In this document: positions 16,601 through 34,588 of the stretch, piece by piece
Layout of the letters: every line of letters begins with the position of its first letter
How positions within the stretch are numbered: position 1 is the stretch's first letter
From: a virus
Lineage: Duplodnaviria > Caudoviricetes
DNA: 64,000 nt
Virus record (IMG/VR): IMGVR_UViG_3300030372_002234
Coordinates: 1-64,000 of that record
Reading direction: 5' to 3' (one strand)
Program-made: the position numbers and the translations under genes
The notes under the pieces: generated by a model
What the model saw: the letters and a program-made list of their open reading frames with translations, nothing else
The model's database searches: none
What the model was told of the DNA's origin: nothing

Positions 16601-19600
16601 GGGTGGATACGATCCGTTTACTAAGTTTAATGGAATGACTATTGATAAAGCCAGAAGGAACGCTGCTGTATTAACCGATGCCTTAGAAGTTTTACAGGGA
16701 AGAAGATCTACAGAAAAACTCAGTGTTGCTATTGATAGACGTAACGTTGTTAGAAGAGGTACTTTAACTGAAGCTCCCATGAAGTTTGTTAAATTTTCTA
16801 ATGAAATAAACGAAGAAGGAGCTAAAGACGCTAGGATGTTGTTAGCAGAAAATACTTTAGAAATGCTTCCTTTATCTGAAGACTCATTAAAGAAAATTAA
16901 TGCTCTTAGAAATACTTTTGATCCTTACGACGAAGCTGACTGGGCTAACGGTATTCAAGTTGCTATGATGGTTAGTAAAGACTCCGCTTATAACGTGTTT
17001 AAACAAAGAGTATTAGCTGAAGAAAGACTTTCAGCTAGGTCTAGAGATTCTAACCCAGACGAGTTTAATAAACAGTTTGATGCACGGTGGGAAAAAGTTA
17101 AACCAATTGTTGACGAGTTAAGAAATGAATTAAATATTCTTAATAGAGATAGCGACGTTGTTTCTAATTTCTTAAACAGAAACGATGTCTTCTTTGGTGA
17201 AACAGCTATTGATTCTACTACCCATGAAACTTTTAACAGTCTGTATTCTCAGAAAATTAAGATTGAGCAAGCTGTTCAAATGGAATTATTGAATAGAACT
17301 CTTGTTCCTGATAACACTTCGTTTGACCGAGAAGTTCAGTTTATTAAACCAATGGCTGATCTAAATGGTATTATCCCTAGATCTGACGGTACTCAACTTA
17401 AGCCTAACACTATTGATGCTCGTATTCAGGATTACCCAAAAACAGACGGTCACTTGATGTTAACGCATCGTTTAGATACGTTTGTTAATACTGGTATTTT
17501 AAATAAAGATCAAGCGTCTGTTCTTAAATTAGCTTTTTGGAATTATGATACTGAAGCATTAGGTAAGATTTTTGACCCAATGAAAACAGATAGTCCTTTA
17601 CGATTTGATGTTCTTGATGGTGTCGATTATATGGGTAAATACGAACAACTTAATAAAGCATTTACAGATGGAGTTGTACACAGAATTGGGCTTCTAAGAA
17701 ATATGTCAAGTAAATTTGATGATCCTAGTTCTTTAGGTCCGGCTGCTGTTGTTCTTGAAGAAATTGGACATGCTCTGGGTCATAAATTAGATTCTGATAC
17801 TCAGATTAACTTTATTGAACGTGTTAAGAAAATTGAGATGGCTACAATTGAAGAAGCTGAAAAACTTCTTTATGGCGAAGGTGGTCCAAAGAATAAAAAA
17901 CGTCTTGAACAATTAAGAGAAGATTTTAGACGTATTAAAGATATGGAAATTCCAGAAAACGCTGCCAAACGTACTGAGTTGTTTGGTGCTATGTTTGCTC
18001 TTAGTGGCTTACATAAAGCTAAAAATCAGTGGGATACTATTACTGACGGTGCTGCAACACAGACCGCTTTGTCTGACGCTCACTCTATTATTAAAAGTCT
18101 TGGTAAATTAGCTGATATTTCTGGCGTTGATGCTGATACCTTAAACGGTAAAAGCTTATTTACTGGTGTTGAAGAAACAATAAGATCTTCTATTAACTTA
18201 GACGTTAGATTAAACAAAAGATCTCAGCCAACAGATGAAAACCGTTTAGACGAAAACCACGGGCCTCGACATGTTGATGTTGATGTTGCAAAACGAAACG
18301 AAGACATTAGAAGAGCTAAGGTTGAAAAAGAAACTGACGATCTTATTGAACAAATCAGAGATCCAAGAACAGGTCAAGTTGATATTTCTCTTCTCGGTAA
18401 CGCTGACAAAATGAGTGTTACTGTAAGAGATACGATTATTCTTCGTGTTATGGAAGACCACGTTAAACGATCTACTTCAGGATCAAGAGTTGATACGCCT
18501 TTTTCTTCTTACCTGTCTGCAATGGCCTTTGGTAAATTAACTCCTAATCAAGTAGCTAGATACGGTGAGCTATTGTCTAGCCCGTTTGGTATGAGGCAGT
18601 TTGCTTTTGCTACTGATGGTGAAATTCCGTTAACTGCCGCAGTTGAGCATTTGTTTAACGGTGCTGATTCTCAAAGTTACTTTACTACTGGTGCTTTCCA
18701 AGACGCTATGCCTACAATTCAAGGATTGGGTCTATACTTAAGAGGTGAGTTTGAGAAAGTTATCCCAGCACTTGCTCTTCTTAAAGGACAAAACATGACC
18801 AAAGGACCGCTTGGACCTACCGGAGGAGAAACTACTCCGTGGTCCTTGTACTCTACTTTGTGGCGTGAAATGGTTATGGACTATCAAGGTAAAGATAGAG
18901 CTAAAGAAGTATTAGTAAACAAGCTTAAATCAATGAAAGATAACGATCCTGATTTTGTTAAATTCTTAGGAAACAAAAAGAAATCAGATGAGTTTTTAGA
19001 TATTATGGCTGACACTGCTGATTCTTGGGCTAATCCAAAAGAAGGTTTGTGGGCAAGTATTGTAGATTCTATGGTTCAGGCTGGAATGGTTAAAGAATCT
19101 AAACGAAACGATTTAATTGCTAATGCTGCTTATCCCATTAAGTTTAAGGACAGTATCTTTAAAAATATGACGGATATTGACGGCGATACTCCTAGAAGAG
19201 AACTTAGAAGAGCTATGGTAGACATAGTTAGAGGAAGGATGGAACACTCCGAAGATGTCGATATTGATATTCTTCAAATCGCATTAGCTGACGTATTACC
19301 AAGCCCGTCTGAAAGAAGAGGCAAGAATCTTGAAACGTATATTAACAATCTTCCTAACGAAATTCAAGCTTTATTAAAAACTCCTGAAATTAAAGGTAAC
19401 ATTGATGTGTTACTCGGGAAAATTAGAAGGGGAGACATTACTCTTAAAGATTTAGGAGATGACGTAAGAACTAGGTATATGGATACTCTTAAAAGCGATG
19501 ATTTAGTTGGTAACGAAGATCCTCGTAAAAAAGCAATGCTTCTTGAGTTGTCTGAAGAGTTTAGAAATAAATTAGCTAAATCTCAAAAGACCTCTACTTT

Positions 19601-21764
19601 AGACTTACAGCCTACAACGGCTGCTGAGTTTGTGGCTAATCGTTATATGAATAACATTGGTTCATCCAGTTATTCGTTTGCTGGTGATGCTTTCTTATCC
19701 CCTAAACAACTTTGGGAAGACCCACGTATTGCTAAGTTCTTAGAAGATGATCCTATTTCTCTTTTAGATTCTGTTAAACGAGGTACTGCTGCTCAAGCTT
19801 TCGATAGAGCTACTTACAGTAATTACTTTGGTATTAAAGGTTTTGGAATGAAAGATCTTATTGAGCTTTACAAAAAAGCGGCTAATGGCGAAAACACTCA
19901 CCATGAGTTTAATATGATGTTTATGACTAAAGATATGACTTTAGATGAGCATAAACGAACAATGACTCACGATGAGCGTCAGAAGTTTAAAGCGGGTATT
20001 GATCACATTGACAGCATGTACAAATACTCAGTAGGTACTTTATCTACTCTTGATAACCCTCATGCTGCTCCTTTCTTAAGTATTATTAACGTTATTAGTG
20101 AGTTAGGTACAGCTTTATCTATCGCCCCTCGTCTTGCTATTGCAACGGCTATCGAAGAAACGCCTATGTCTATCGGCAGCGTTCTTAAAGATAACTTGTT
20201 GGGAGCTAAGAGAGAAATGCAAGATGTTCTCGCTATAGCTAAAAGCACTAAAGATATTCATGAAACCTTAGAGGGTTTAGGCCATATTACATCTTCTGTT
20301 ATGCACCAAGCAGCAGCCCTTGCGGCTAAAATGGGTGATGACGGTTCAGGATCATACGGCGTTACAGATAAAAAGAAAATTAAACAAATCTACAAATTCT
20401 TGTCTACTGGTATGAACAAACAGGTTATGGCAGCACGAAGTTTAGGTGCCATGCAGTACGTTCATAGATTAGATAGTATTTTCTCTAATATTGCGGGAGA
20501 TATCTCAATTAAAGCAGAAGATACAGCTAGAGGCAAGAGCATGTCGTTTATGCGTCAAGGCACTGGAGGTTTCCACGTTAACGCAGATGAAATTTACTTA
20601 AGATTACAAGAACAATTTGACGGTGACTTTACTAATATCACTTTAGATGAATTTAAGAAAACAACTAAAGAATTAGGAATTGATGAAGAAATTTCAAGAG
20701 ATATTTTAGAGGCTGTTAAAATGGGCTTGTTTGAAGAAGACAAATACCAGTTCTTTAGAAACATGTGGGTTGAAAATCGTGAGCAAATTTTAAGAACGGG
20801 AGTTCCTTTTGATAAATTACGATTAAAAATTACGGCTGATTACGATCAACACGTAAGAGCAGGTAAAGATGGAGATGCTGTGCGAACTAGAAAACTACAA
20901 GCTTTGAACGCTATTAGAGAGCTTGTGTTTACTGCTTCCACTAAGTTTGCTAAACAGCCCTCATTAAGTACTCAGCCTTTAGGGGCTAGAAACGCTGGTG
21001 TGTTGGCTACCTTCTTTACACGCCTTACAACCTATGCTTCGTCTTCTGCTAATACCTTAAGAAGAGCTATGTTTGTTGGTCCGTCTACGTTTGCTGCTGC
21101 CTTTACTGCTCACATGATTACGGGATGGTTATACTATAAGCTTATTCAGCTTCAGGGTTTCCGTACTATCGAAGAAATGAAGAGAGAATTACAAAAAGAC
21201 CCAATGGGTGAATTAACTGATGCTGTAATGTCTGTTCCGTTCCTTGGAGCTAACCAAATGGTTATCAGTATGCTTCTTCAGATGATGCGCGGAGAACGAC
21301 CTGTGAACTCCAAGCCTTACGATATTGCTGCTCTTAATGCGGCTAACACTCTCTTACAGTTACCCGTAAGAGTTACAAAAGCTGTTCAAGATATTATTAA
21401 CGGTGATTGGGAAAAAGGAACGGCTAACCTTGCCCAAAGAATGCCTGTTCCCCATGCGTGGGCCTTAGCTATTGCTTTAAGAAATGCCGGAGCATTTGAA
21501 AAGGACGTTCAAATTGGTAGGCTTAGTCCTAAGTATAGAGGACAACTTAAACCACAGCCTATCCAACCTCCTGCTAGATCTGAAGTTACTAAGAACCCAA
21601 TTAATACATCTGTATTAGAACCTCAGGTTGAAGTAGGTAAACCTCAGGTAACTCCTGAGCATACCAACCCAGAGACAGGTATGACAACTCCTTCATCTGT
21701 AGAAGAAGACAGAGTTGGAGAACTTTTAAAAGAATTAGAAAGTAAAGGGTTTGAACCAGTGTAA
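7605..21764 (+). CDS. Giant internal virion protein D-like (gp16 analogue), 4719 aa, with an embedded T7-type RNA polymerase-like segment and a zincin-like motif
   Basis: Single ORF with AAAGGA RBS; hydrophobic Gly-rich segments near aa 380-420; motif A-like DADSSG (D1931), motif B-like KSPVMTDSYG (K2028/Y2036); EEIGH motif near nt 17760. Confidence 0.7.
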   Translation: MSNFTANSQWFKDYVQSIEIAEFNKERPKRNFKDYRKEQTIASRVENERFMNDFSSLVSLVPEYDYTDELADSKENLLGMFRLNFSEQTERNAARDAKRDELASLVTDEQRTVYDTTQTSIITDLKEATKNNTPLWQVMNPDDFVWKDTGEATTRLYDTTNGYSMSQYTTFTTADTYKSWFGATRRVKMGGAQRLQLNESLADSFRKIATEAKIRWDFEGPIAEANGLTIKQYIDEAIAENPDQWWFFRNIGDLFYTTEQGNQIDGRVAPWNSSMLSERLLSMTDENWTSEGGDRDKLLAIFKMDENEIGPTGIIEGDVRKFIAENPTLIEDLQNSNNGWQFISALNKRKSERVIGNYLTENNNSYGAAGFMNLLGYGFTTDPAIALDIAATVGLTIATGGGYVGVRAAAGVLQIGSKLKFGLSIAKSAKKAKHFKRMVKRAHDGKTVGRYRAASAVGKTLRGIGEATMFSRRLLPTQIVSELFFPSLKFLRHSRAMKKGDDAADAATSWWKYLKNENYLGDSVGRRMLHRSIGGAMEGVVWGSIEYGVMEDYQDRTNSLIFGNDAAAALALDRDRSGAYGHMLMFGVAFGGLGGPLIGETFTQVGKIPQGMMIGGMKMSQWADQVLSPGGQEAMGYAKAPFAKRFGARIVQGTGNAVTWLGGGNQYSVEQQYLMYKALSKISQTELLKMAEADDNGVAMTKVLQDIEDRISKYQWAASEAGLDIREAFKSAEDVMDGKPEKERTSSAFIKQVEDHLEGQEIAARGKAGFRSRVRQAVLAEFQERMRSGQDVGIMEKAMEEADPNNPPSDPEVSNLNKTVTDIQEESAKVSKEREAVVQEQARRKEGLEPDEPARTPEQIEGEFAEQVKLRDEETIAAKTEENNKAKAELKELNKSKRKGVSKKQFKKDNPRVEELETTIRETDKFLADAEEAKKVSIEEAEAKKNAELEEAKKDLQNLSDDELTERLNDLDVILGERLYELESEAYAYWQANPEKFVKYIAYFRKKVLEERLNGDTPNANGMPPMFAAIDGLEVDGAVNMIQLFAPGTYFTRDELIRVRRQLKTEDQRFITAALEGSQDGEFDLTKAEARALTTRIKDILVEEAVNKDYTSEEMRFMNAIINEPSAETIEKAFASTRVETYVNNMMIDAAKNNKVLTADDLMLYNQDPELVIETFVKAKQDLAKLMVEVRDGNYTTILRSQGKNVLDTLGEGVEGYKKSGKGITNKWKADFLAKYFSENEEFTATKAEMLEVFEVNDEFVGPTLQQPARTSEQMDLVKARIKDLLEDVVNQQAEKIKMSEVRARRKRAGYAKQREKTQNAYAKWYESSTKLSNKTKADQDKVVFQRARNKLKEMRDSINKAVDAEWENGTIKADWIARQSKRLDVQYRPNFAHARPLVKVLSMLQAHLLGTARWKRDSLSGFFVDTTITRKDLISILETAEEGYGFIANIDEIAIGARVGEGYDGEKVIQALLTKLKSTDQTLGNVLSAGFEKNLGIHFGKKLPYATDVFGSRGDLRNLMTSLKGQLEGKQAYARGKAGAGEYAGNRGDGNIDEATWNSSFNEEFITRLGYIATEGSQRARNLLAALDGLSPEKQIATALKFINEFIPEGQNKLKSFSQLGGGTEAIDWVGPKRAAQAVLSALSTERPYANKVAESYVVKGERNRPERARRLSNIDEDGIYIQHDSDPIIQRNYERATADHAMNWLLKKLDNPDLDAEARKDIYKKLQAWLENFPEQAVLNDAVRAALPQQGLSFVPRWMVTGPDADIIGKNFGTGIEGQIQYNLAMSKVNTPALMATIHDAIFVGLPSMMTKSGDVAASPSWNFKVGDDHVLRGIGFGFQTLIARKGSFEDALNHVHQIMYGYKGLVEEARASYNTMSQKRVEGLTGKTFDTNDEFVGWMAQEFPKLDTAKKEAIIKELFPALASSYMDADSSGSNIMLALVMGQDTDFGNLWKTIKEADEGNKDVYNEAHSEAVINAYKHVESYVLERIEKRDFNGKAGLEEVYNDLGKVFTVLKDEGLSKEILKSPVMTDSYGIGVAKMKESIIESFGKPSVKEELIKRGLFTEEDYDAKIYQLSDTLATLLSKGVDSKLGGWIKQSLFAKGGLDNKKLGEILNNWRRTESGQRVRTGDEQRSVADSNNFMSDMTSGSTTANFKAGNSEEISMFDNMFDEVTRQISVLAEITGDVESAKAHVNNLVNLITDDLKGDKNVEKLMAEGKFAEAQREIDIAFNKMSEESVMVKALNSYMAQGYGFDETAFRGQLEAILGKGKADTINQILGRLNPLARQAMKGQMFRQLAISAETRNFVKNNFDQIADKILRLQAEESPLGLGKLVMEPLSEEDIRQRTILQAVKELSEIYDLEKLELEVGGERFKNLTWEDYFKQWEKDSGTGLEIRAAAIDAFKNVRWKAMLDEIDQRLAENKESNDAEVMSLEMQKEAIEQTMKMLARIIDATNEGRPTDAAKRLELVTESRNVVNTGSMPGLLGALPQTTTRRFEGAPIPILRMAQLEQTAEVKQLRSLERGAQQADTTKAVFSDAELSRPLSPEDLADVQTYKGSMYDVPLASKPIYGLQDSPSPFIAAELLQAELTNFANQVGGVAKKYLSEGNFFKLYNTHRHYVAAQEAMKADTVYRDIAKSLSEKREQLLKDRPTSDALDTESFLNQSEDYVNLKLELDKAQDNALMVRNEVLAIDGSWAKDVEERAWSIMSMSGETLETVSNGRTWGEAVNKTALDNQRSGNMIAWLAPPAKTPGEVILDGSNTAKLRYEDKSETAMLPRSAHSVDASAGLYMSNYIQVTGWFEGLKSILKREPTSREITVFARWADAKARFDVDEQNKLLSNFGKEIAPYKDLTEKQLTDIMGRGQDIAAQNFRDANNAIAYMAKPVIREQVKESLKAQLGDDFEAKVAERTGGLTLEELMNFKRKLTDENTTIFVNPLGVVIAPHKVVGDGIVNLTMQERVLALQGIQNQTVVDRMRLATMFDRKLPMNSELSSRMGGYDPFTKFNGMTIDKARRNAAVLTDALEVLQGRRSTEKLSVAIDRRNVVRRGTLTEAPMKFVKFSNEINEEGAKDARMLLAENTLEMLPLSEDSLKKINALRNTFDPYDEADWANGIQVAMMVSKDSAYNVFKQRVLAEERLSARSRDSNPDEFNKQFDARWEKVKPIVDELRNELNILNRDSDVVSNFLNRNDVFFGETAIDSTTHETFNSLYSQKIKIEQAVQMELLNRTLVPDNTSFDREVQFIKPMADLNGIIPRSDGTQLKPNTIDARIQDYPKTDGHLMLTHRLDTFVNTGILNKDQASVLKLAFWNYDTEALGKIFDPMKTDSPLRFDVLDGVDYMGKYEQLNKAFTDGVVHRIGLLRNMSSKFDDPSSLGPAAVVLEEIGHALGHKLDSDTQINFIERVKKIEMATIEEAEKLLYGEGGPKNKKRLEQLREDFRRIKDMEIPENAAKRTELFGAMFALSGLHKAKNQWDTITDGAATQTALSDAHSIIKSLGKLADISGVDADTLNGKSLFTGVEETIRSSINLDVRLNKRSQPTDENRLDENHGPRHVDVDVAKRNEDIRRAKVEKETDDLIEQIRDPRTGQVDISLLGNADKMSVTVRDTIILRVMEDHVKRSTSGSRVDTPFSSYLSAMAFGKLTPNQVARYGELLSSPFGMRQFAFATDGEIPLTAAVEHLFNGADSQSYFTTGAFQDAMPTIQGLGLYLRGEFEKVIPALALLKGQNMTKGPLGPTGGETTPWSLYSTLWREMVMDYQGKDRAKEVLVNKLKSMKDNDPDFVKFLGNKKKSDEFLDIMADTADSWANPKEGLWASIVDSMVQAGMVKESKRNDLIANAAYPIKFKDSIFKNMTDIDGDTPRRELRRAMVDIVRGRMEHSEDVDIDILQIALADVLPSPSERRGKNLETYINNLPNEIQALLKTPEIKGNIDVLLGKIRRGDITLKDLGDDVRTRYMDTLKSDDLVGNEDPRKKAMLLELSEEFRNKLAKSQKTSTLDLQPTTAAEFVANRYMNNIGSSSYSFAGDAFLSPKQLWEDPRIAKFLEDDPISLLDSVKRGTAAQAFDRATYSNYFGIKGFGMKDLIELYKKAANGENTHHEFNMMFMTKDMTLDEHKRTMTHDERQKFKAGIDHIDSMYKYSVGTLSTLDNPHAAPFLSIINVISELGTALSIAPRLAIATAIEETPMSIGSVLKDNLLGAKREMQDVLAIAKSTKDIHETLEGLGHITSSVMHQAAALAAKMGDDGSGSYGVTDKKKIKQIYKFLSTGMNKQVMAARSLGAMQYVHRLDSIFSNIAGDISIKAEDTARGKSMSFMRQGTGGFHVNADEIYLRLQEQFDGDFTNITLDEFKKTTKELGIDEEISRDILEAVKMGLFEEDKYQFFRNMWVENREQILRTGVPFDKLRLKITADYDQHVRAGKDGDAVRTRKLQALNAIRELVFTASTKFAKQPSLSTQPLGARNAGVLATFFTRLTTYASSSANTLRRAMFVGPSTFAAAFTAHMITGWLYYKLIQLQGFRTIEEMKRELQKDPMGELTDAVMSVPFLGANQMVISMLLQMMRGERPVNSKPYDIAALNAANTLLQLPVRVTKAVQDIINGDWEKGTANLAQRMPVPHAWALAIALRNAGAFEKDVQIGRLSPKYRGQLKPQPIQPPARSEVTKNPINTSVLEPQVEVGKPQVTPEHTNPETGMTTPSSVEEDRVGELLKELESKGFEPV

Positions 21765-21826
21765 ATTAAAAACCCAGTGTATTGTAACTAAAGGTTACTC
21801 ACTACATATTTTATTTGTTATTTTAT

Positions 21827-21844
21827 AATTAGGGATCACTATAG
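21827..21844 (+). promoter_or_regulatory. Candidate phage (T7-family) RNAP promoter AATTAGGGATCACTATAG
   Basis: Intergenic; differs at 2 of 18 positions from the K11-type promoter AATTAGGGCACACTATAG as recalled, and shares the CACTATAG core of T7/SP6 promoters. Confidence 0.5.
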
Positions 21845-21862
21845 ATAACCGGGGGGATAACT

Positions 21863-22069
21863 ATGGAAGAGATCATTATTACTATTGCAATCAGTATTGC
21901 TGGACCCGCTCTACTGGGCATCTTTGGGCTGATCTGGCGGTTATCCGCTAAAGTGAGCCTTCATGAAAAAATGATTGAAGCACACGACAGGCGTATCAGG
22001 GATAACCTGAGCCGCCTTCAGAAACTAGACGATAAACAATACTCTATTGTTAAAAATATTAAAATGTAA
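21863..22069 (+). CDS. Small membrane protein (holin-like)
   Basis: One N-terminal hydrophobic helix (IIITIAISIAGPALLGIFGLIW) followed by a charged coiled-coil-like tail. Confidence 0.45.
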   Translation: MEEIIITIAISIAGPALLGIFGLIWRLSAKVSLHEKMIEAHDRRIRDNLSRLQKLDDKQYSIVKNIKM

Positions 22070-22106
22070 TTTTACTGGCCCCTTGGGCCGCTGTCAGGAG
22101 TCTACC

Positions 22107-22643
22107 GTGATTAAGTACCTTGTTCTGGCTACGCTTCCGTTGTTACCTATGGATGATACCGATAACGATAATTCAATAATGGACTATCAAATCTATCAGA
22201 ATGGTCCTCGTACTGTGTACGAAGGGGCTGCTAAACTCAAGTGGGACGAAAACGTAAATGCTTGTGTTGAATACACTTTCGATCTCGTACCGGGGCGGTT
22301 GGCGGGATCTGCTATCTCTTCCGATCCGGGTCAACCGATGCTTCCTTTCGATGAGGTCTTGATCTTTGATGATGAGATCTACGTTAGTTGGGAGCGGAAC
22401 CGCACTGACTTATGGCCTACTCCTACGGAGTGCCATCGGAGATTCCACTTTTTTATTATTAAAACAGAATTTAATGCTGATGACCTCAGTGAACTCTTAA
22501 GTGACTGGGGTCCACCTTATGTGGTTGACGCTCCGTGGCCTGAGGAGGATTACACCTACCTCTCGCCTTGGGATCTTAATCTGGATACTGTGGTGGACGG
22601 GAAAGACTTAGCGATTCTTCTAGCAGGGTGGAAAATCGATTAG
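22107..22643 (+). CDS. Putative exported protein with a C-terminal dockerin/EF-hand-like repeat
   Basis: AGGAG then GTG at 22107; hydrophobic N-terminus; FNADDLSELLSDWG and WDLNLDTVVDGKDLAILLAGW. Confidence 0.6.
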   Translation: MIKYLVLATLPLLPMDDTDNDNSIMDYQIYQNGPRTVYEGAAKLKWDENVNACVEYTFDLVPGRLAGSAISSDPGQPMLPFDEVLIFDDEIYVSWERNRTDLWPTPTECHRRFHFFIIKTEFNADDLSELLSDWGPPYVVDAPWPEEDYTYLSPWDLNLDTVVDGKDLAILLAGWKID

Positions 22644-22728
22644 GGGGTCAGGAATTTACAGAGGGGTAAATATGAACAACTGTGTTCAGTTTCCCCCCTT
22701 ACCCCCCGATTCTGAAAGGAATCAAACA

Positions 22729-23316
22729 ATGTCGTATTCATTTGACTGCTTCTGTACTGCGTTCTCTATGCTTGTTCATGCTATTGCTGGTAATAAATCT
22801 ACCCTTGACGCAAAAGCCGACAAAGAAAAGGCTGCAAAGCTTGCTCTTGAATTCTTTAAGCAAATGGGACTTGATGTTATTACCCCGCTTAATCGAATTC
22901 GCGGTGCGGTCAAGCACGAGTTGCTTGGCGGCACGGCTGATTACCTTGTAATCCACTTCCCTACACAGTGGATTTGCATTAAGGGTTATGTCTATAGGGT
23001 GACTACCATCTGTGAGGTCCATCAGTATAGGATCGAGAAAGCTCAGGACGCAAGAGACTGGGCTTTCGAGGTTGAGAAGCCTTGGCGATTCCAGACTATT
23101 GTTTGGGATGGCGAGACCGGCGAACAAGTTGGCTATGAATTTGAAAGTGACTGCTACGAAGATGTCACTGATATGCAGATGATTACCCAAGCCACCAGTG
23201 ATTTTGTCGAAGCCGAAGTGCAAGAAATTGTAAAGCAAGTCACTGATGAGGTCGTTGAAGAAGTATGTGATGACCTTCGTCGCGCCGGTATTCTTGACGA
23301 TGACCGGATGAACTAA
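22729..23316 (+). CDS. Hypothetical early protein (195 aa)
   Basis: ATG 22729 follows the GAAAGGA hairpin RBS; the upstream ATG at 22672 lacks an RBS. Confidence 0.75.
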   Translation: MSYSFDCFCTAFSMLVHAIAGNKSTLDAKADKEKAAKLALEFFKQMGLDVITPLNRIRGAVKHELLGGTADYLVIHFPTQWICIKGYVYRVTTICEVHQYRIEKAQDARDWAFEVEKPWRFQTIVWDGETGEQVGYEFESDCYEDVTDMQMITQATSDFVEAEVQEIVKQVTDEVVEEVCDDLRRAGILDDDRMN

Positions 23317-23394
23317 ACTCGACTGAGCGAGTATAAACAGCCATTAGGCTCAGTGCGTCGGGCTGTACCCATAACTGGGTACGGCTCGGGTTGG
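23317..23394 (+). ncRNA. Pistol self-cleaving ribozyme, copy 1
   Basis: P1 ACTCG/CGAGT; loop ACTGAG pairs with CTCAGT (pseudoknot); ATAAACAG linker; P2 CCA/TGG; TTAGG; GCG; 12-13 bp P3; predicted cleavage at G23390|T23391. Confidence 0.9.
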
Positions 23395-23400
23395 ATTTTG

Positions 23401-23412
23401 TTTCCACTATCA
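23401..23412 (+). promoter_or_regulatory. Repeated early-region motif TTTCCACTATCA, copy 1
   Basis: Exact repeat at 23746 and 24750, 11-nt match at 25402; ends 23 nt before the ATG at 23436. Confidence 0.6.
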
Positions 23413-23435
23413 CTCGATTCTGAAAGGAATCAACT

Positions 23436-23696
23436 ATGATTGGTCACTACGATGCCGTTCGCGTTATTATCCGTGCTCTGTTGCATAAGGAGGACAGGCC
23501 GTCTGATGTGCTCCTAGAGATCCTCAATATGGCTATGACACGCCTTGCTGAAGAGCGTGAAGTGGTCTGCGAGGAAGGCCCAATTTGGGCACCCGATGGC
23601 ATGGACAGACGCTTGTCTGAAATCGAAGACAAGACATACGCGCTTCTTGACTGCATCGAAAAGCTTAAGCAGCCGTACGTTAACAGGGATTTCTGA
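23436..23696 (+). CDS. Hypothetical early protein (86 aa)
   Basis: ORF with GAAAGGA hairpin RBS. Confidence 0.75.
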   Translation: MIGHYDAVRVIIRALLHKEDRPSDVLLEILNMAMTRLAEEREVVCEEGPIWAPDGMDRRLSEIEDKTYALLDCIEKLKQPYVNRDF

Positions 23697-23745
23697 TCAC
23701 CCACAAGCGTGTCCTCTACCGGGGATGACGGCTTGTTTTGTTTTG

Positions 23746-23757
23746 TTTCCACTATCA
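23746..23757 (+). promoter_or_regulatory. Repeated motif TTTCCACTATCA, copy 2
   Basis: Exact repeat; ends 22 nt before the ATG at 23780. Confidence 0.6.
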
Positions 23758-23779
23758 CCCGTTCTCGAAAGGAGAACAC

Positions 23780-24013
23780 ATGGCTTTGTACAGCAAAAAA
23801 GAATTGGACAAGTTCAGAGAAATCGCTCGATTCTTCAAGGGATTCGATACTAGCATTCGATCTGGCTCATCGTCAGAGGCTATCGATGTTGTTATCGGAA
23901 TGGTCAACCGTGACCGTCCTGTTGTCGAGTCTCTCATTAACCCACGCAATTCATTTGAAATGCAGAGTGACAGTTGCCCTGAGACGGGCATTGTCTACGG
24001 CGATCTTTCCTAA
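23780..24013 (+). CDS. Hypothetical early protein (77 aa, MALYSKKELDKF…)
   Basis: GAAAGGAG hairpin RBS directly upstream of ATG 23780. Confidence 0.7.
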   Translation: MALYSKKELDKFREIARFFKGFDTSIRSGSSSEAIDVVIGMVNRDRPVVESLINPRNSFEMQSDSCPETGIVYGDLS

Positions 24014-24038
24014 CCTCGCTCTTGAAAGGAGCAACAAC

Positions 24039-24515
24039 ATGGGTGTTTCATTCATGCTCTACCGTACTGACACCGAAGGCAAGCACCAGCCTGTCGAAGG
24101 AGAACGCTTCGAGATCCACTGGTCCTACTCCAGTTGGGCCTACTTCAGGGATGGTGTCCTCAACGCCCTGAAGGATGCATACGTTGTGGCCACCAAGGTC
24201 CGCAACGATGCTCGTCGGTCGTGGGAGAACGAAGAGAACAAGTCGGACAAGTTCTGGCTTGACAGCTTCGAGGATGCTGCGGCTAACGTCCAGCGTCTTG
24301 CTGACCTCAAGACCTACTGGGTTGACGGCGACAACCCTGACGAGCAGGTCGATGCGGTCTGGTCCTTCGACAAGGCCAAGGTGATCGAGTGTCTCTTTGA
24401 GGCTCTGGTCATCGACTCTGAGAAGTCGGTGCATCCGTTCGTCGAACGGGACCGTCTCGCGTGGGTGCTGCGTTACCTCACGGTGAACGATGGCGATCAC
24501 CTTGTGGTTGCCTGA
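24039..24515 (+). CDS. Hypothetical early protein (158 aa, MGVSFMLYRT…)
   Basis: GAAAGGAG hairpin RBS upstream of ATG 24039; the 5' part of the called 23709 ORF overlaps another gene and is probably spurious. Confidence 0.75.
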   Translation: MGVSFMLYRTDTEGKHQPVEGERFEIHWSYSSWAYFRDGVLNALKDAYVVATKVRNDARRSWENEENKSDKFWLDSFEDAAANVQRLADLKTYWVDGDNPDEQVDAVWSFDKAKVIECLFEALVIDSEKSVHPFVERDRLAWVLRYLTVNDGDHLVVA

Positions 24516-24521
24516 ACCCAC

Positions 24522-24600
24522 ACTCGTCTGAGCGAGTATAAATAGACGTTAGGCTCAGAGCGGCAGGCCGCACCCTTCACTGGGTGTTGGTCTGCGTCGT
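24522..24600 (+). ncRNA. Pistol self-cleaving ribozyme, copy 2
   Basis: P1 ACTCG/CGAGT; loop TCTGAG pairs with CTCAGA; ATAAATAG linker; P2 ACG/CGT; TTAGG; GCG; P3 GCAGGCC-G-CACCC/GGGTG-TT-GGTCTGC; predicted cleavage at G24596|T24597. Confidence 0.9.
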
Positions 24601-24749
24601 GAAAGGAGATCAAGGATGGTCTCAGCTAAGGAAGGCACTTTCCCTTATTGGATGTTTAACCCAGACGGCCCTTGCGGGGGCCAGCCCCTCACGGGGCAGT
24701 CTGGGGTACGTGACCCTTCGATCCTTGCGGGTAGTTTCCCCGCAGGGAG

Positions 24750-24761
24750 TTTCCACTATCA
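24750..24761 (+). promoter_or_regulatory. Repeated motif TTTCCACTATCA, copy 3
   Basis: Exact repeat; ends 21 nt before the ATG at 24783; preceded by a 9-bp hairpin (24723-24746). Confidence 0.6.
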
Positions 24762-24782
24762 TGCTCTCGAAAGGAGCAACCC

Positions 24783-25301
24783 ATGTCTTATTCTGCATCG
24801 TTCATGTTCGATCACTGTCGCCTCATCTACAACGTTCAGGGTGAGGACGGCTATCTGTTCAACATCAACACCGTGACTGGCAAGCTGGCTGAGTTCTGCT
24901 GGCTGAAGCCCTCCACGGTGGAGTTCGAGGTGAACAACATCAGTGATGATACCGTCGAACTCCAGCGGACCAAGCCGAGAGCCGTGAAGCTCAAGGTCCA
25001 GCCTCTCCGCAAGCTGGAGTACTTCTTCAACTGGTGTACCAACGAGCCGCTGCCCTGCGCTGCCCGTGCCATCCACACGCTGCGGAGCAAGAAGGACAGC
25101 ATTCGCTTCGTTACTGCTGGCCCTGTCGGCGTTCCGGGTGGTCTTCAGGTCTGCTTCCGTCAGTCTCCCGGTCCTGTGACCGAGTGGCAGCCCTTCACGG
25201 CTGGCTACGGTGGCGAGTGGCTCCCAATGAAGCTGGAGCACATGTCTCGCACGTTCAACCTGTGGCAGGACCGCATCCTGAAGGAAGCCTTGGCTGACTA
25301 A
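24783..25301 (+). CDS. Hypothetical early protein (172 aa)
   Basis: ORF with hairpin RBS and C/G-ending codon bias. Confidence 0.75.
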   Translation: MSYSASFMFDHCRLIYNVQGEDGYLFNINTVTGKLAEFCWLKPSTVEFEVNNISDDTVELQRTKPRAVKLKVQPLRKLEYFFNWCTNEPLPCAARAIHTLRSKKDSIRFVTAGPVGVPGGLQVCFRQSPGPVTEWQPFTAGYGGEWLPMKLEHMSRTFNLWQDRILKEALAD

Positions 25302-25319
25302 TCGGTCTTTGCTGCGGTA

Positions 25320-25383
25320 CGAAGACCGAAGAGCCACGACCGAAGGCCCGAAGTCACTCAAACCGAAGACCGAAGGCCCGAAG
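25320..25383. repeat. Array of seven CGAAG units, including a duplicated GACCGAAGGCCCGAAG
   Basis: CGAAG at 25320, 25327, 25341, 25349, 25364, 25371, 25379. Confidence 0.8.
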
Positions 25384-25401
25384 ACCCGTCCTTGCGGGTA
25401 G

Positions 25402-25412
25402 TTCCACTATCA
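25402..25412 (+). promoter_or_regulatory. Repeated motif TTCCACTATCA, copy 4
   Basis: Preceded by TCCTTGCGGGTAG, which is also present at 24722. Confidence 0.5.
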
Positions 25413-25623
25413 CCGGACTCGCATAGAGGCATTCCCCGCGTGTAGTCCCCGCCAGAAGCCGTAGAATCCCGACTGCGGTCCTCGCGTGGACTCGATGAGT
25501 TCCTCCCCGTTTACTTTTACTGTCCGTTAGGCGGCCTCTCCGGCCCTCTCACGGCATTTCCGGGTTCACCTGTTCGTATGGTGGCCCCTGCTTATTTCTC
25601 TCCGTTTCTCGAAAGGAAACAAC

Positions 25624-25911
25624 ATGTCGAAGATTAGATTGGTCGTTCGTTCCACTGCGGAGCTTAACGAAGAAATCGCAAAGAAGAAGGAAGCCCTTCT
25701 CAACGTCCGGGCAGACCTCGAAGCAGCACGGAAGCGTATGGACAGCCTCAGGCGTGATTTCCATGAGGCCCAGATGGATGTCAGGACTTTCACGGATCTC
25801 AAGGACACCTTCGAGGAGCGTCTCGGTGAGCTTCAGTTCTTCCTTGGTCAGAACGACATCTACGAACAGATGGTCGATCAGGGCATCATTGCCGAGCCGG
25901 TTGAAGATTAA
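25624..25911 (+). CDS. Hypothetical coiled-coil early protein (95 aa)
   Basis: Hairpin RBS GAAAGGA; heptad-like charged helix. Confidence 0.75.
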   Translation: MSKIRLVVRSTAELNEEIAKKKEALLNVRADLEAARKRMDSLRRDFHEAQMDVRTFTDLKDTFEERLGELQFFLGQNDIYEQMVDQGIIAEPVED

Positions 25912-25922
25912 ACTAACCCAAC

Positions 25923-25949
25923 ACTGCTGGGCATCAGTATAAACTGCCC
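25923..25949 (+). ncRNA. Minimal H-type pseudoknot resembling the pistol P1/pseudoknot scaffold
   Basis: ACTG/CAGT stem; loop GGGCA pairs with TGCCC; GT-ATAAA linker as in both pistols; lies just after a stop codon. Confidence 0.5.
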
Positions 25950-25973
25950 TTTCATTTTCAGAAAGGCATTCAA

Positions 25974-26234
25974 ATGCTTGAAGAGTTTCGTGTCTTTGTT
26001 TACGATGACTTCGTTAAGGCACGGGCTGGTCATCCAGCTATCCGTGTCTGGAATTTTGAAACCGAAGAAAAGGCTCTTAAGGTAGCCAAGGAGCTATGCG
26101 AAAAGTTTAACGAAGAGAAGGATTACATGAAGAATCTCTGTCGTTATTCTGTTAAGGTGCATCGCTTTCACGGATTTAACCTGAAGTTTAGAACGGAGCA
26201 TCCCTTGTTTAATTCATTAGAGGAGTACAAATGA
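25974..26234 (+). CDS. Hypothetical protein (86 aa)
   Basis: GAAAGG RBS and ORF. Confidence 0.7.
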   Translation: MLEEFRVFVYDDFVKARAGHPAIRVWNFETEEKALKVAKELCEKFNEEKDYMKNLCRYSVKVHRFHGFNLKFRTEHPLFNSLEEYK

Positions 26235-26500
26235 TCGAAGAAGAGTACGACTACCGTGATCACCATGTGGTGGTTGAGATTGAATTGATGGAGGACAACC
26301 AGAAGATCTGGTACTTAGTGACCTGTCCTGACGGGGAAGAAAGGACTGTAGATGTCTCCCCTTACGGTAATCAGAATGAAGTCGTAAAGAAATGGATTGA
26401 TATGTTCTATCAACACGGTGAGTATTTTAGCCGTATTGGTATTGGTCCCTTGACTATGTATGATTTAGAGTTAATTGATATTTCTCAGAAGATTTCCTAA
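26231..26500 (+). CDS. Hypothetical protein (89 aa)
   Basis: GAGGAG RBS; ATGA overlap with the previous gene. Confidence 0.7.
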   Translation: MIEEEYDYRDHHVVVEIELMEDNQKIWYLVTCPDGEERTVDVSPYGNQNEVVKKWIDMFYQHGEYFSRIGIGPLTMYDLELIDISQKIS

Positions 26501-26501
26501 A

Positions 26502-26535
26502 GGGGTCCGCCAAGGTGGCGGGCCTCTGTTTATTT
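26502..26535 (+). terminator. Intrinsic terminator-like hairpin
   Basis: GGGGTCCGCCA-AGG-TGGCGGGCCTC (11 bp including G·U pairs) followed by TGTTTATTT. Confidence 0.55.
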
Positions 26536-26562
26536 CTATGCCATAAAGGCAGAAAGACTATT

Positions 26563-26895
26563 ATGTCTAACTACAACACTAGCGTTTCTTCACCCGTCCG
26601 TGGCCGCATCACCCGCAAGGACGGCAAGCCGTTCACTGCAAAGGTGACCTTCTGGATTAACAAGAAGGAGCAGGGCGAAAAGAAAACTTGGGAAGTGGAC
26701 TTGGAAGGTCTGACTATTCTCGAAATGATTGATCGAGTCAGGCAGATTGAAAAGAACTACAAGGCCAAGTACGGTATCAAGTGTACTGTGTGGCGTGTGA
26801 ACAGTGGCCCTAGCCTGTTCATGGACCGTATCAAGGACATGCAGCAGAGCCGACGCGAGTGGGCTATCGCTCAGGCCGCCGGAGAACAGCGTTGA
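26563..26895 (+). CDS. Hypothetical protein (110 aa, MSNYNTSVSS…)
   Basis: AGAAAG upstream of ATG 26563; basic protein. Confidence 0.7.
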   Translation: MSNYNTSVSSPVRGRITRKDGKPFTAKVTFWINKKEQGEKKTWEVDLEGLTILEMIDRVRQIEKNYKAKYGIKCTVWRVNSGPSLFMDRIKDMQQSRREWAIAQAAGEQR

Positions 26896-27121
26896 GCGGC
26901 TGCTCGACTCAAGAGGTATCCCGAGTCCCCTCTGAGGCATACGTCTCAGAGGGGGTCTCCGGGCCTCACACGGAACCTGTTGACTTGGGGGCTGCCCTCC
27001 TTGTTTTTATATTAGTAGTTTTATTATGCTATAGATTACTCAAGAATACTAAGGATTGATCCGATGATTATGTAGCGTCCAAAAAACCCACGTTATTGGT
27101 ATAGCTACATAAGGAAAAGCT

Positions 27122-27502
27122 ATGAGTAAACTGTATGACCGTGATGGATTCTGCGTGTTCGGTACACAACCTAAAGCTACTACGCTTGTTGTGAACGACC
27201 GTGTGTATCTCATCGTTGACCGTAGGCGTAACCAAGATAACCTGAATGAAGCACAGCAATTGCACATGCAAGGGCTGCTGAATGTCCATGATCCTTATGT
27301 GGACTGGAGGGCTGTCACTGACAAGAAAGGAAAGTCTACCGATAAGGGAATGCTGAATGTATTCCCATCCATTGCACAGCAGTGGAAGAATCAGATGAAA
27401 GGTAAGTACATTAAACCCAAGACTTATATGACTGATAACCCTGATAAGATGGGTGAAGATAAGCATTGGGAAGTTCTTAAGTCTTACCTAGAAAGGAATT
27501 AG
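27122..27502 (+). CDS. Hypothetical protein (126 aa)
   Basis: AAGGA RBS and ORF. Confidence 0.7.
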   Translation: MSKLYDRDGFCVFGTQPKATTLVVNDRVYLIVDRRRNQDNLNEAQQLHMQGLLNVHDPYVDWRAVTDKKGKSTDKGMLNVFPSIAQQWKNQMKGKYIKPKTYMTDNPDKMGEDKHWEVLKSYLERN

Positions 27503-31911: not shown

Positions 31912-32106
31912 ATGTACGGTAAAGGCGATAAATACAGAGACGTTGATAAGAAAAAGTACGATGAACAGTATGAAAAGATTTTTGGAAAGAAAAAATTTAA
32001 CATCATGAGTGACAAGGAGTCCAATGACAGTATGGGAAACGTACACAAAAGAAGAAAAGACAAGGCTAACAAATCTTCAGTTAGCAAACGAAGACAAAGC
32101 CGCTAA
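31912..32106 (+). CDS. Small basic hypothetical protein (GKGDKYR…YEKIFG type)
   Basis: AGAAAGGAG RBS; the C-terminal part overlaps the RNAP gene start. Confidence 0.55.
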   Translation: MYGKGDKYRDVDKKKYDEQYEKIFGKKKFNIMSDKESNDSMGNVHKRRKDKANKSSVSKRRQSR

Positions 32107-34588
32107 ACAGTCTATTGCAAAGTATCTTAACAATGTTAACATGTCCCCTAGTGCTTCTCCAAGAGAAAAGGAATTTGTATTTGACTATACAGAATACCTT
32201 AGTGATTACATTAAGTGGACAGAAGAGCAGTACGAAAAAGTAAAGAAGAAGCCTTATTGGCTTACTATTGCTCATTTGTTAGGTGCTGAACGTTGTGCTG
32301 CTATTGTTGTTAAAGCTTTACTTGATAGTTGCTTATCGTCTCGTTTGATACAAGCATCAGACGGCATTAAATACGATAACTATAACTTAGGAGACTTAAG
32401 ATCCCAGACTAAACAAAATATACTTGGAGTTATATCAAGAGAACTGTGGCTTGCTATTGGCATACGCTTGGCTAAAGAAAACTACGGCGAAGAGTTTGCC
32501 CGACAGTCTCATTACTTCAAGAACTGGAACAAAAAGAGAATGAAAGCGTTTGCACGTAAGTGTCAAACGTTGCCTACATGGGATAACCAAAAAAGAAATG
32601 TGGTTGCCTTATCGTTTTATACTTTAATGGTAGGAAACAAAGAAAGCGTTATGCCCTTTGTTGAGAATCCTATTACTATTGTAAAGAACGGTCAGATTAA
32701 AAGACATACTATTATCTCCTTGCGAGAAGAGTTTACGAAAAACTTTGAGGCATTTCATAATTTCTACCAATACTATAAGTGGTTGTATTACCCGATGGTG
32801 TGCCCACCTATTCCTCACAACTATCCTAACAGGACAGCAGAGGACTGGGGTGGTGCTTTACATCTAGAGTACAGGAAGTCATCTGTTCATAACACAAGAG
32901 CAGGTAATTACTACAAGAACAATAGTGAGCATAGCCAGCAGTCAATCAATGCGCTTAATGCATTGCAAGGTACTGAATGGAGCATCAACAAAAGAGTTCT
33001 TGAAGTAATGACAAACCTGTACAAGTCTAATCGACAGGTGTGTAACCTACCTCCTTATGAGCACGATGAGTTTGTGTTTAGCAAACCTTTCCCTGAAGGG
33101 GAAGAAAAAGAAGTAATAGCTAAATGGAAAAACGAACGGGCGGAAGCTTGGGGTCTATGGGAAAAGACTAAGCAAAAGAGAATGCAAATGGAAATGCGTT
33201 TGCTTATTGCTGATGATCTTAAAGACCTGACGTTTTGGCACGGCTATTCTTCTGACTTCAGAGGCAGATGCTATACGCAGTCATCGTTTCTATCTCCTCA
33301 GAGTGGTGACTTTGACTGCGGCATAATCCAGTTTGCTGAAGGTGCTAAACTAGAAGCAAATGAAGTTAAAGAAAAATGTGATTACTTTTGGTTAAAGGTT
33401 CACTTAGCTAATAGGTGGGACTTTGATAAAGCTTCTTTTGAAGAACGTGCTCAATGGGTAGATGATAATATTGATATGCTTCGTCAAGTGTACGAAGACC
33501 CTGAAGGTACTGTAGACCTCTGGAAAGATGACAAAGCTAAAAAGAATGTGTCATTCAGACGGCTGGCTGATACTATTGATTTCTTTGTTGCTTTAGAAAC
33601 AGGTTACTCGTATGTTCCTAAGAATCTCGATGGAACATGCAACGGTATTCAACATTGGGTTGGTACGACAAAAGCTGAAAACTTAGCTGAACTTGTCAAT
33701 GTTATTAAAACTCTTAAACCGGGTGACATGTATAAGTTTATTGCTCATAACGCTACTGCAAAAATGGAAGCAGAGCGTGATGCCAATCAATACTTTGATA
33801 TGTTTTTAACCCATTGGGAGCATACAGAAAAAGACAAGAAGATGCCAAGGGGGCTACCTAAAAGAACTGTAATGTGCGACCCCTACGGGGTTACGTTCTA
33901 CAGCGCAAGGCAGTACATTCGATCTGAAGGACATCTTGACTGGTGCAGACCATTGCTCGAAGAGCGTGGCCTAAGCTGGCAGGGAGCCATCATGGAATGT
34001 ACGTCAGTAATTTGGGAAGCACTGCAAGAAGCATTGATCTTACCTAATGAAGCTAAAGAATACATTAAAGATTGTGTTGAAGTTTGTTACAACAGTGATG
34101 ACCGGAAGAAAAAGCCACTCCAATGGACAACTCCTTCTGGATTTAAAGTCAGGCAATATTATACAGAACATATAGAATATATTACTGATATTGCTTTACT
34201 GCTAAAGAATGATGTACGCATCAGATCTACGGCAGAAATGTGGCAGTTTACTGACAACATGGACGTTAGGAAAATGGCTACTGCTATTCCTCCTAATTGG
34301 GTTCATTCAATTGATGCTGCTCATATGGTATTTGTGGTACTCGCTTTGCTAGTTATGGGTTGCAGAAACTTCTGTATGATCCATGACAGCTTCGGCGTAC
34401 CCGTCACTTACCTAAAGTATTTACCACGTATATCAAGGGAAACATTTTATGAAATTCACAAAGAAAGCCAACTCGAACTATTTAAACAAGACCTCGAAAA
34501 CTTTTCCGGTCACGAACTCCCAGACATTCCTGAACAAGGTGGCCTCATTCCAGAAGAAATTCTCGAATCTGAATATCTCTTCTGCTGA
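32024..34588 (+). CDS. T7-type single-subunit DNA-dependent RNA polymerase
   Basis: SDFRGRCY (DxxGR), motif A LDGTCNGIQH, motif B RGLPKRTVMCDPYG, PPNWVHSIDAAH, motif C MIHDSFG; AAGGAG RBS before ATG 32024. Confidence 0.97.
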   Translation: MTVWETYTKEEKTRLTNLQLANEDKAAKQSIAKYLNNVNMSPSASPREKEFVFDYTEYLSDYIKWTEEQYEKVKKKPYWLTIAHLLGAERCAAIVVKALLDSCLSSRLIQASDGIKYDNYNLGDLRSQTKQNILGVISRELWLAIGIRLAKENYGEEFARQSHYFKNWNKKRMKAFARKCQTLPTWDNQKRNVVALSFYTLMVGNKESVMPFVENPITIVKNGQIKRHTIISLREEFTKNFEAFHNFYQYYKWLYYPMVCPPIPHNYPNRTAEDWGGALHLEYRKSSVHNTRAGNYYKNNSEHSQQSINALNALQGTEWSINKRVLEVMTNLYKSNRQVCNLPPYEHDEFVFSKPFPEGEEKEVIAKWKNERAEAWGLWEKTKQKRMQMEMRLLIADDLKDLTFWHGYSSDFRGRCYTQSSFLSPQSGDFDCGIIQFAEGAKLEANEVKEKCDYFWLKVHLANRWDFDKASFEERAQWVDDNIDMLRQVYEDPEGTVDLWKDDKAKKNVSFRRLADTIDFFVALETGYSYVPKNLDGTCNGIQHWVGTTKAENLAELVNVIKTLKPGDMYKFIAHNATAKMEAERDANQYFDMFLTHWEHTEKDKKMPRGLPKRTVMCDPYGVTFYSARQYIRSEGHLDWCRPLLEERGLSWQGAIMECTSVIWEALQEALILPNEAKEYIKDCVEVCYNSDDRKKKPLQWTTPSGFKVRQYYTEHIEYITDIALLLKNDVRIRSTAEMWQFTDNMDVRKMATAIPPNWVHSIDAAHMVFVVLALLVMGCRNFCMIHDSFGVPVTYLKYLPRISRETFYEIHKESQLELFKQDLENFSGHELPDIPEQGGLIPEEILESEYLFC

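Follow-up and report, generated by a model that had tools for sequence, protein, structure and literature searches.

In phage T7, the early mRNA carries an RNase III site in every early gap and is processed there by the host enzyme. For the hyperplastic regions of T4-type phages, PeSL (promoter-early stem-loop) cassettes were reportedly described by Arbiol and coworkers in 2010 as short, repeated modules of a stem-loop and a putative promoter that bound non-homologous small early genes, and the pistol class of self-cleaving ribozymes is said to go back to the work of Weinberg and coworkers in 2015. Here, we analysed a 64,000-nucleotide stretch of DNA (hereafter the window; bases 1-64000 of the 72,875-bp IMG/VR virus record IMGVR_UViG_3300030372_002234), which comes from an uncultured marine podovirus with a 72-kb genome and a T7-type RNA polymerase, and which carries two pistol ribozymes between small genes of its early region. 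Pistols have frequently been found near phage genes (Harris et al., 2015; PMC4604425), and multiple hammerhead ribozymes flank prophage genes, where it was proposed that long transcripts are cut into single-gene mRNAs and where phage transcripts of ~2 kb were cleaved by the hammerheads in vitro (Perreault et al., 2011; PMC3088659). A 2019 review repeated the transcript-processing idea as an open question (PMC6765202). Our analysis suggests, with moderate confidence, that the two pistols act as terminator surrogates or insulators in a cassette-built early region.

The term early is used here by position, for the small genes located 5-9 kb upstream of the polymerase gene. A covariance search against Rfam at the gathering threshold (34.5 bits for RF02679) detected two pistols and three tRNAs in the window, and the whole 72.9-kb genome contained the same two pistols and no further copy. 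Both are intergenic and on the gene strand, 1.2 kb apart with three small genes between them:

23317-23395, plus strand: pistol 1 (RF02679, 65.4 bits), with the predicted cut between G23390 and U23391
24522-24600, plus strand: pistol 2 (RF02679, 49.2 bits), with the predicted cut between G24596 and U24597

Pistol 1 is complete, with P1, a 6-bp pseudoknot, P2, a P3 of 14 bp and the GU junction. Pistol 2 scores only 49.2 bits because its long P3 is passed over by cmscan; when parsed manually and by script, it has a P3 of 13 pairs with one bulge, the GU junction and a 3-bp P2, ending at 24600. In both pistols the P1 pairs are intact and the pseudoknot between the P1 loop and the P2-P3 junction comprises 6-7 bp, one pair of which is swapped between the two copies (A-U to U-A). 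All upper-case positions of the Rfam consensus in the conserved core (AUAAA linker, UUAGGC and the GCG with the catalytic G, G23355 or G24560) were matched with one exception, the A before GCG, which is a U in pistol 1 and pairs with A6 in the pseudoknot. From the fold, both ribozymes are predicted to cleave themselves in a Mg-dependent reaction. A permissive Rfam search (E<=10) of the region 21700-27200 revealed, beyond the two pistols, nothing at E<=1 and only hits at chance level, which indicates that hammerhead, twister, hatchet, twister-sister and HDV-like ribozymes are absent from this region. Thus, the pistols that the sequence-only reading had placed at 23317 and 24522 were borne out by their Rfam scores, and its broader picture of a ribozyme-punctuated early operon, with a structured element in nearly every gap, was reduced, as ribozymes occur in 2 of about 10 gaps.

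Selection on the fold could be examined with the help of G061, a related 49.6-kb contig (a fragment), which was aligned to window positions 21819-23416 at 83% identity and which carries both pistols at the same positions as this genome. The two copies of pistol 1 differ at 2 of 80 positions (98% identical, against ~83% in the wider alignment). Pistol 2 shows many differences with its pairing kept. Compensatory pairs were counted by script (a MAFFT alignment of 12 pistols, in which P3 was misaligned, was left unused), and six double changes were found: two compensatory pairs in P2 (G-C to A-U and A-U to C-G) and four pairs of P3 that changed on both sides. The pistol core and the GU junction are unchanged, and the GU two-nucleotide junction between P3 and P2 is present in all four copies of the two genomes. 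The compensatory changes in P2 and P3, together with the conservation of pistol 1, imply that selection maintains the active fold, and they are good evidence that the pistols are under purifying selection. The Rfam scores and these changes also agree with the earlier view that the ribozymes are genuine, lie on the sense strand and are located between early genes.

The positions of the pistols relative to upstream genes are close. The first base of pistol 1 directly follows the stop codon 23314-23316 (distance of 0 nucleotides), and pistol 2 starts 6 nucleotides past the stop codon ending at 24515. In G061 (locus L098, 1861-1940 and 1014-1093, minus strand), both upstream open reading frames (ORFs) run through P1, and their stop codon is a TAA that a U-to-A change has created within the conserved AUAAA, so that coding sequence and ribozyme overlap by ~20 nucleotides. 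A strict pistol-core pattern had matches in 79 IMG/VR contigs. In 41 of 79 non-redundant contexts, a same-strand ORF ends either within 10 nucleotides upstream of the pistol or inside it. Such an arrangement would fit translation-coupled switches: with the upstream stop codon next to P1 or within it, ribosomes that terminate there would open the ribozyme fold, and cleavage would report the translation of the upstream gene. Of the 79 contexts, 15 have a stop codon whose end is at pistol nucleotide 0 or 1, and 14 have it inside the pistol, and both G061 stops fall within AUAAA; on the other hand, phage genomes are often tightly packed without this having to mean regulation, and the measured rate constant of the pistol is ~10 per min (PMC4604425). 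We therefore consider a role as translation switches highly improbable.

The distribution of pistols among relatives is patchy. None was detected in nine contigs found through the polymerase, including the near-complete genomes G006 (96% polymerase identity) and G004 (70%), or in G060. The expectation that related phages would have pistols at syntenic positions was hence confirmed for G061 and failed for G004, G006 and G060, two of which have a plain hairpin in the slot of pistol 2. At the slot of pistol 2, the relatives L006 and L097 have a plain hairpin and a U-rich tail followed by the same conserved GAAAGGAGATCAAGGATG hairpin sequence, and L008 has neither a pistol nor such a plain hairpin there. 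The homology of L097 begins at 24597, the nucleotide 3' of the predicted pistol 2 cut, and reaches a 96% match over 24597-24642. The early region as a whole is a mosaic in which the punctuation is conserved between genomes: a terminator hairpin and a short repeated box at 23698-23782, noncoding sequence at 25453-25624, and a pistol-like stub with a hairpin carrying a Shine-Dalgarno sequence (SD hairpin) at 25923-25966. The patchy occurrence of pistols and the plain hairpin in the same slot point to exchangeable end-of-unit modules in a hypervariable cassette region. It is even conceivable, although we hold it doubtful, that the boundaries have a double use, punctuating expression and providing joints for recombination, with pistols, terminator hairpins and perhaps the stub being interchangeable at the slots. 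If this were true, the ribozymes would be polymerase-independent terminators for those phage transcripts that ordinary terminators cannot stop.

The same mosaic structure raises the question of whether the pistols are just passengers that arrived with horizontally acquired GC-rich cassettes, or selfish elements of cassette exchange, without any role in expression. Both pistols are inside a block of six genes (22729-25911) that have no homologs in L006 or L008; this block is a GC island (up to 59% vs ~38%), the occurrence of the pistols among close relatives is patchy, and the homology of L097 starts exactly 3' of the pistol 2 cut. However, the compensatory changes and the near-perfect conservation between this genome (G000) and G061 speak for selection on an active fold, and the unit-end position is consistent in the two genomes. 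On these grounds, passengers appear to us rather unlikely. In finer detail, the GC island extends over 24000-25600 (55-59% compared with ~38% in the genome) and coincides with the cassettes for which the closest relatives have no homologs, a sign that they may have been acquired recently.

The most economical function of the pistols would be intercistronic cleavage, and their proposed role as terminator surrogates or insulators can be laid out along the stretch, which we read as the hypervariable, GC-rich early part upstream of the RNA polymerase gene, composed of small cassettes and modular punctuation. The elements concerned are listed below in their order (z scores compare the fold with that of shuffled sequences):

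22729-23316, plus strand: 195-aa early gene (ATG at 22729; stop codon 23314-23316), whose stop directly adjoins pistol 1
23400-23413, plus strand: box copy 1, GTTTCCACTATCA, candidate promoter
23416-23431, plus strand: hairpin with a GAAAG loop and the Shine-Dalgarno (SD) sequence of the 86-aa gene
23436-23696, plus strand: 86-aa gene, preceded by the SD hairpin
23703-23745, plus strand: terminator-like hairpin (23703-23736) and U-tract UUUUGUUUUG, z -2.4
23745-23758, plus strand: box copy 2, an exact TTCCACTATCA copy
23780-24013 and 24039-24515, plus strand: genes of 77 and 158 aa, between box 2 and pistol 2
24606-24623, plus strand: 7-bp hairpin (GAGAUCA/UGGUCUC, loop AGGA) that holds the AUG at 24616 and starts 9 nucleotides 3' of the pistol 2 cut
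24660-24705 and 24722-24748, plus strand: two GC-rich hairpins, z -3.75, no Rfam match
24749-24762, plus strand: box copy 3, ahead of an SD hairpin that leads to the 172-aa gene
24783-25301, plus strand: 172-aa gene, after box 3 and the SD hairpin
25305-25399, plus strand: CCGAAG repeat array, then a short hairpin (25384-25399), z -1.8 (not significant)
25400-25413, plus strand: box copy 4, AGTTCCACTATCA, heading the noncoding unit
25414-25620, plus strand: noncoding unit of ~200 nucleotides behind box 4, closed by a hairpin and a U-rich tail
25915-25949, plus strand: pistol-like stub, in which a P1-like stem, AGUAUAAAC and possibly a 5-bp pseudoknot can be read from the sequence
26501-26536, plus strand: strong terminator-like hairpin (26501-26527) and U-rich tail, z -5.0
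26927-27009, plus strand: hairpin cluster and terminator closing the GC-rich block (region 26876-27010, z -3.8)
32009-34588, plus strand: T7-type RNA polymerase gene (859 aa; PF00940, E 6.5e-64)

In the proposed scheme, every boundary would have a 3'-end structure, to which four gaps add the TTCCACTATCA box, and a hairpin presenting the SD would follow; at two of these boundaries a complete pistol would take the place of the terminator hairpin. When the polymerase reads through, each pistol would cut in cis (between 23390 and 23391, and between 24596 and 24597), and at ~10 per min such cleavage could be co-transcriptional. The upstream mRNA would end in a compact ribozyme fold with a 2',3'-cyclic phosphate, the polymerase would not be stopped, and the downstream RNA would start with a 5'-OH, with a stable hairpin from 9 nucleotides (pistol 2) or 25 nucleotides (pistol 1) past the cut. 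As terminator surrogates or insulators, the pistols would thus uncouple neighbouring cassettes. Pistol 1 is directly before box 1, pistol 2 closes the unit of box 2, and the other units close with terminator-like hairpins. If the box is a start, the order of units would be as follows: the 195-aa gene and pistol 1; box 1, the 86-aa gene and a terminator; box 2, the 77-aa and 158-aa genes and pistol 2; a hairpin RNA and a hairpin; box 3 with the 172-aa gene, the repeat array and a hairpin; box 4, a noncoding RNA of ~190 nucleotides (25413-25605) and a terminator-like hairpin; and finally further genes, closed by terminators. The arrays of 2-5 pistols between small same-strand ORFs of other phages, the nearby ORF ends in 41 of 79 pistol contexts and the in vitro cleavage of phage transcripts by hammerheads also speak for this reading. 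Cleavage in vivo and an effect on RNA stability are what we infer from this arrangement.

The box TTCCACTATCA has four exact copies in the window (23402, 23747, 24751 and 25402), all of which are intergenic, on the plus strand and within 2 kb; outside the early cluster no exact copy was found window-wide, and looser matches were at chance level. It recurs in the early regions of four relatives (G004, G006, G060 and G061). Most copies have a hairpin before and an SD hairpin after, with a fixed distance of 21-24 nucleotides to the ATG, and upstream of most genes there is an SD hairpin whose loop is GAAAG and whose stem covaries. The repeated box and SD-hiding hairpins of the sequence-only reading therefore stand, with four exact copies and an SD hairpin at most genes, and their generality is reduced to four gaps in the case of the box. 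Since the box also heads a unit without ORF and SD, a role in starting transcription, not translation, is favoured, and it is probably a promoter, for which its placement makes it a candidate. It contains CACTAT, which we take to be common to T7/SP6-type promoters; CACTATA is at chance frequency in the genome, as estimated from genome length. A scan for sigma-70 promoters found sites no more numerous than in shuffled sequences, and the box does not fit sigma-70. No repeated T7-like promoter was found elsewhere in the genome, where TTAGGGATCACTATAGATAAC occurs only once.

This single TTAGGGATCACTATAGATAAC (21829-21849) is located just before the first early gene and is a close look-alike of SP6/K11-type promoters. 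Another sequence, CTATAGAT (27029-27036), appears again behind the terminator at 27000, and its conservation extends to L008. Both are possible phage or host promoter sites. N4-type hairpin promoters, consisting of a hairpin plus a box, were rejected as a model for the box, as the distance between hairpin and box varies from 0 to ~12 nucleotides and the loops are not of 3 nucleotides; a tRNA-like NCCA end was rejected on the same ground.

The sequence that follows pistol 2 requires separate consideration. The hairpin at 24606-24623 retains its pairing through G-U wobble changes in G000, L008, L006 and L098, and the 86-aa ORF that begins at its AUG (24616) is probably not a gene. It may be that the pistols mature the 5' ends of noncoding RNAs, in which case pistol 2 would release a structured RNA of ~150 nucleotides (24597-24748). 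That the AUG of this ORF is buried in a conserved hairpin, that the ORF crosses the GC-rich hairpins and box 3, and that it diverges in relatives past the hairpin are all in line with this idea, as are six other phages with a T7-type RNA polymerase in which a single pistol is followed by 200-470 nucleotides without an ORF. After pistol 1, however, come a box, an SD hairpin and what is clearly a gene, of 86 aa, and a start codon lies 13-30 nucleotides after many pistols in other phages. Maturation of noncoding RNAs is therefore an unlikely general function of the pistols in our view.

The six phages belong to a wider set. A T7-type polymerase was found in 6 of 47 other pistol-bearing records, and in all six the pistol is 6-9 kb upstream on the same strand. 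These records (L101-L106: G038, G010, G035, G056, G041 and G058) are 42-69 kb long and have one pistol each, followed by a conserved noncoding stretch that apparently starts with a long inverted repeat; this layout suggests 5'-end maturation of a noncoding RNA. Arrays occur among 50 pistol contigs: G019 has five pistols, G045 has three, and six other contigs have two each. In the arrays of G019, G045 and G031 the pistols are between small same-strand ORFs, often from the last base of the stop codon. In cultured phages, BLAST look-alikes of the pistol were mostly from Bacillus, Gordonia and Curtobacterium phages.

Several points weigh against the pistols as terminator surrogates or insulators. 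Three of the five related genomes that cover the region (G004, G006 and G060) are pistol-less, which implies that any benefit is dispensable. The sequence after pistol 2 may be noncoding rather than a gene. Only 11-13 nucleotides of the box are conserved, whereas a promoter of a single-subunit polymerase would be expected to comprise ~17-23 bp and to recur at middle and late genes, upstream of which the box is absent. A single RNA library contained part of the stretch, and in the form of contigs only (272 nucleotides). Finally, a 5'-OH is not stabilising in every host: in Bacillus, RNase J1 specifically breaks down the RNA that glmS ribozyme cleavage leaves with a 5'-OH, so the general stabilisation that the sequence-only reading had expected from 5'-OH ends would depend on the host.

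A more far-reaching explanation was that RNase III processing has been replaced, lineage-wide, by ribozymes and structures in nearly every gap, possibly together with a polymerase injected with the DNA. Two real ribozymes in the early cluster, structure in most gaps and the recurrence of the box and SD hairpins are consistent with it. However, a ribozyme is present in only 2 of about 10 gaps with no other ribozyme family at E<=1; the remaining gaps hold ordinary hairpins that are possible terminators or RNase III sites; and G004, G006 and G060 share the early architecture without pistols. As for the polymerase, the candidate would be a 4719-aa ORF of virion type, which gave no polymerase signal in Pfam, PHROGs or PDB sequences, and the suggested coupling found no support. 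We consider such a replacement very unlikely.

The elements other than the pistols that had been listed in the gaps are real sequences and are not ribozymes. The hairpin at 23704-23736 was recovered with its U-tract; as 23703-23745, it has been retained in L008, L006 and L097, where two of its pairs show compensatory changes. What had been described as a three-way junction at 24660 is indeed structured, in the form of two GC-rich hairpins that belong to no Rfam family, and the multibranch element at 26879 likewise proved to be structured, as a hairpin cluster ending in a terminator; from 26913 onward L008 shows 90% conservation. The array of CGAAG repeats could not be upheld as a structured element, given its z of -1.8. 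Neither could the pseudoknot at 25923, since the region 25912-25973 folds no better than shuffled sequences (z -1.35) and corresponds to the pistol-like stub, which is without P2, P3, GCG and cleavage site, has no Rfam match and is 95% identical in L008. The strong hairpin at 26501-26527 had been absent from that first list.

The noncoding unit at 25414-25620 is a candidate phage small RNA, judged by its conservation and layout. It is 84% identical in L008 (1958-2184) and partly conserved in L006 (2885-3090), L097 and L098 (range over the four 77-84%), and it has been kept in these four relatives although the flanking genes differ. Arrays of CAAGACC occur at the same place in L006 (~2815-2870) and L098 (~170-235, minus strand). 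In at least three genomes (25305-25385 in the window) the box at the head of this noncoding unit thus has a CCGAAG or CAAGACC array directly upstream, which may be a protein-binding array.

With regard to the genome, every large gene of the window is on the plus strand, including those for a T7-like primase-helicase, a family-A DNA polymerase, a ribonucleotide reductase and a portal protein, in addition to the RNA polymerase; the major-capsid ORF adjoining the portal gave a weak Gp10A-like match under the Pfam cut-off. The RNA polymerase shares only ~25% identity with that of any cultured phage, and a DNA search with window positions 22000-27100 found no match in cultured phages. Marine metagenomes contain the phage DNA, and among public runs the stretch is well covered in marine DNA runs only. 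Ten early proteins compared with PHROGs gave nothing informative. The 195-aa gene has no homolog in L006 or L008 and ~83% nucleotide identity in G061, and G061 also has the 77-aa gene, as does an RNA-library contig whose flanks differ. This contig of 272 nucleotides, from a seawater metatranscriptome library (run X20), corresponds to the 77-aa gene (window 23780-24023), and its flanks diverge at SD-hairpin boundaries, which would fit cassette exchange at SD-hairpin elements and is not proof of transcription. The joint 22713 to 23698 is present in a contig from public runs.

The 4719-aa ORF occupies 7605-21764 and is preceded by an ORF of 1524 aa. Neither has a Pfam or PHROG match, the former has no match to PDB sequences, and its product is presumably a giant protein of the tail or the virion interior. 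The ends of the record (1-1161 and 71715-72875) form an inexact repeat of ~90% identity (1046 of 1161 positions), which could reflect either the assembly of two variants over a circular junction or a diverged terminal repeat.

The role of self-cleaving ribozymes in bacteria and phages is still unsettled, and this locus provides a compact natural comparison: a pistol and a plain hairpin occupy one slot in close relatives with the same downstream sequence, so that the surrogate or insulator idea is directly testable. With it, the known range of pistols comes to include marine podoviruses that have a T7-type RNA polymerase, where they are repeatedly located upstream of the polymerase gene in the early region. 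The sequence-only reading was not aware of such an arrangement in T7-like phages; ribozyme-flanked phage genes and the processing idea have in fact been known since 2011 (PMC3088659) and were reviewed in 2019 (PMC6765202), and what we describe is not a new RNA-processing system.

Compared with the pistol class (RF02679), the two ribozymes have the same P1, pseudoknot, P2, P3, GU junction, core and association with phage genes, and differ only by their long P3 (13-14 bp) and by their host, a marine phage with a T7-type RNA polymerase. PeSL cassettes are similar in that repeated regulatory modules are present here too and the homology of the relatives is confined to modules; unlike them, the box has no sigma-70 consensus and its promoter role is putative, whereas PeSLs are without ribozymes. 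With T7 RNase III processing the locus would share intercistronic cuts and structured ends, but ribozymes are in only two gaps and in some relatives there are none. There is also a likeness to the clustered hammerheads of prophages (PMC3088659), where several sense-strand ribozymes likewise flank single genes or small gene groups, and the two gene-strand ribozymes flank a gene block in this phage as well. Here the ribozymes are instead of the pistol class, in two copies, in the early region of a lytic-type podovirus, and mixed with terminator hairpins and a box. What this locus adds to these systems is the comparison between pistol and hairpin at one slot of close relatives, along with the finding that pistols occur repeatedly in the early regions of T7-type polymerase phages.

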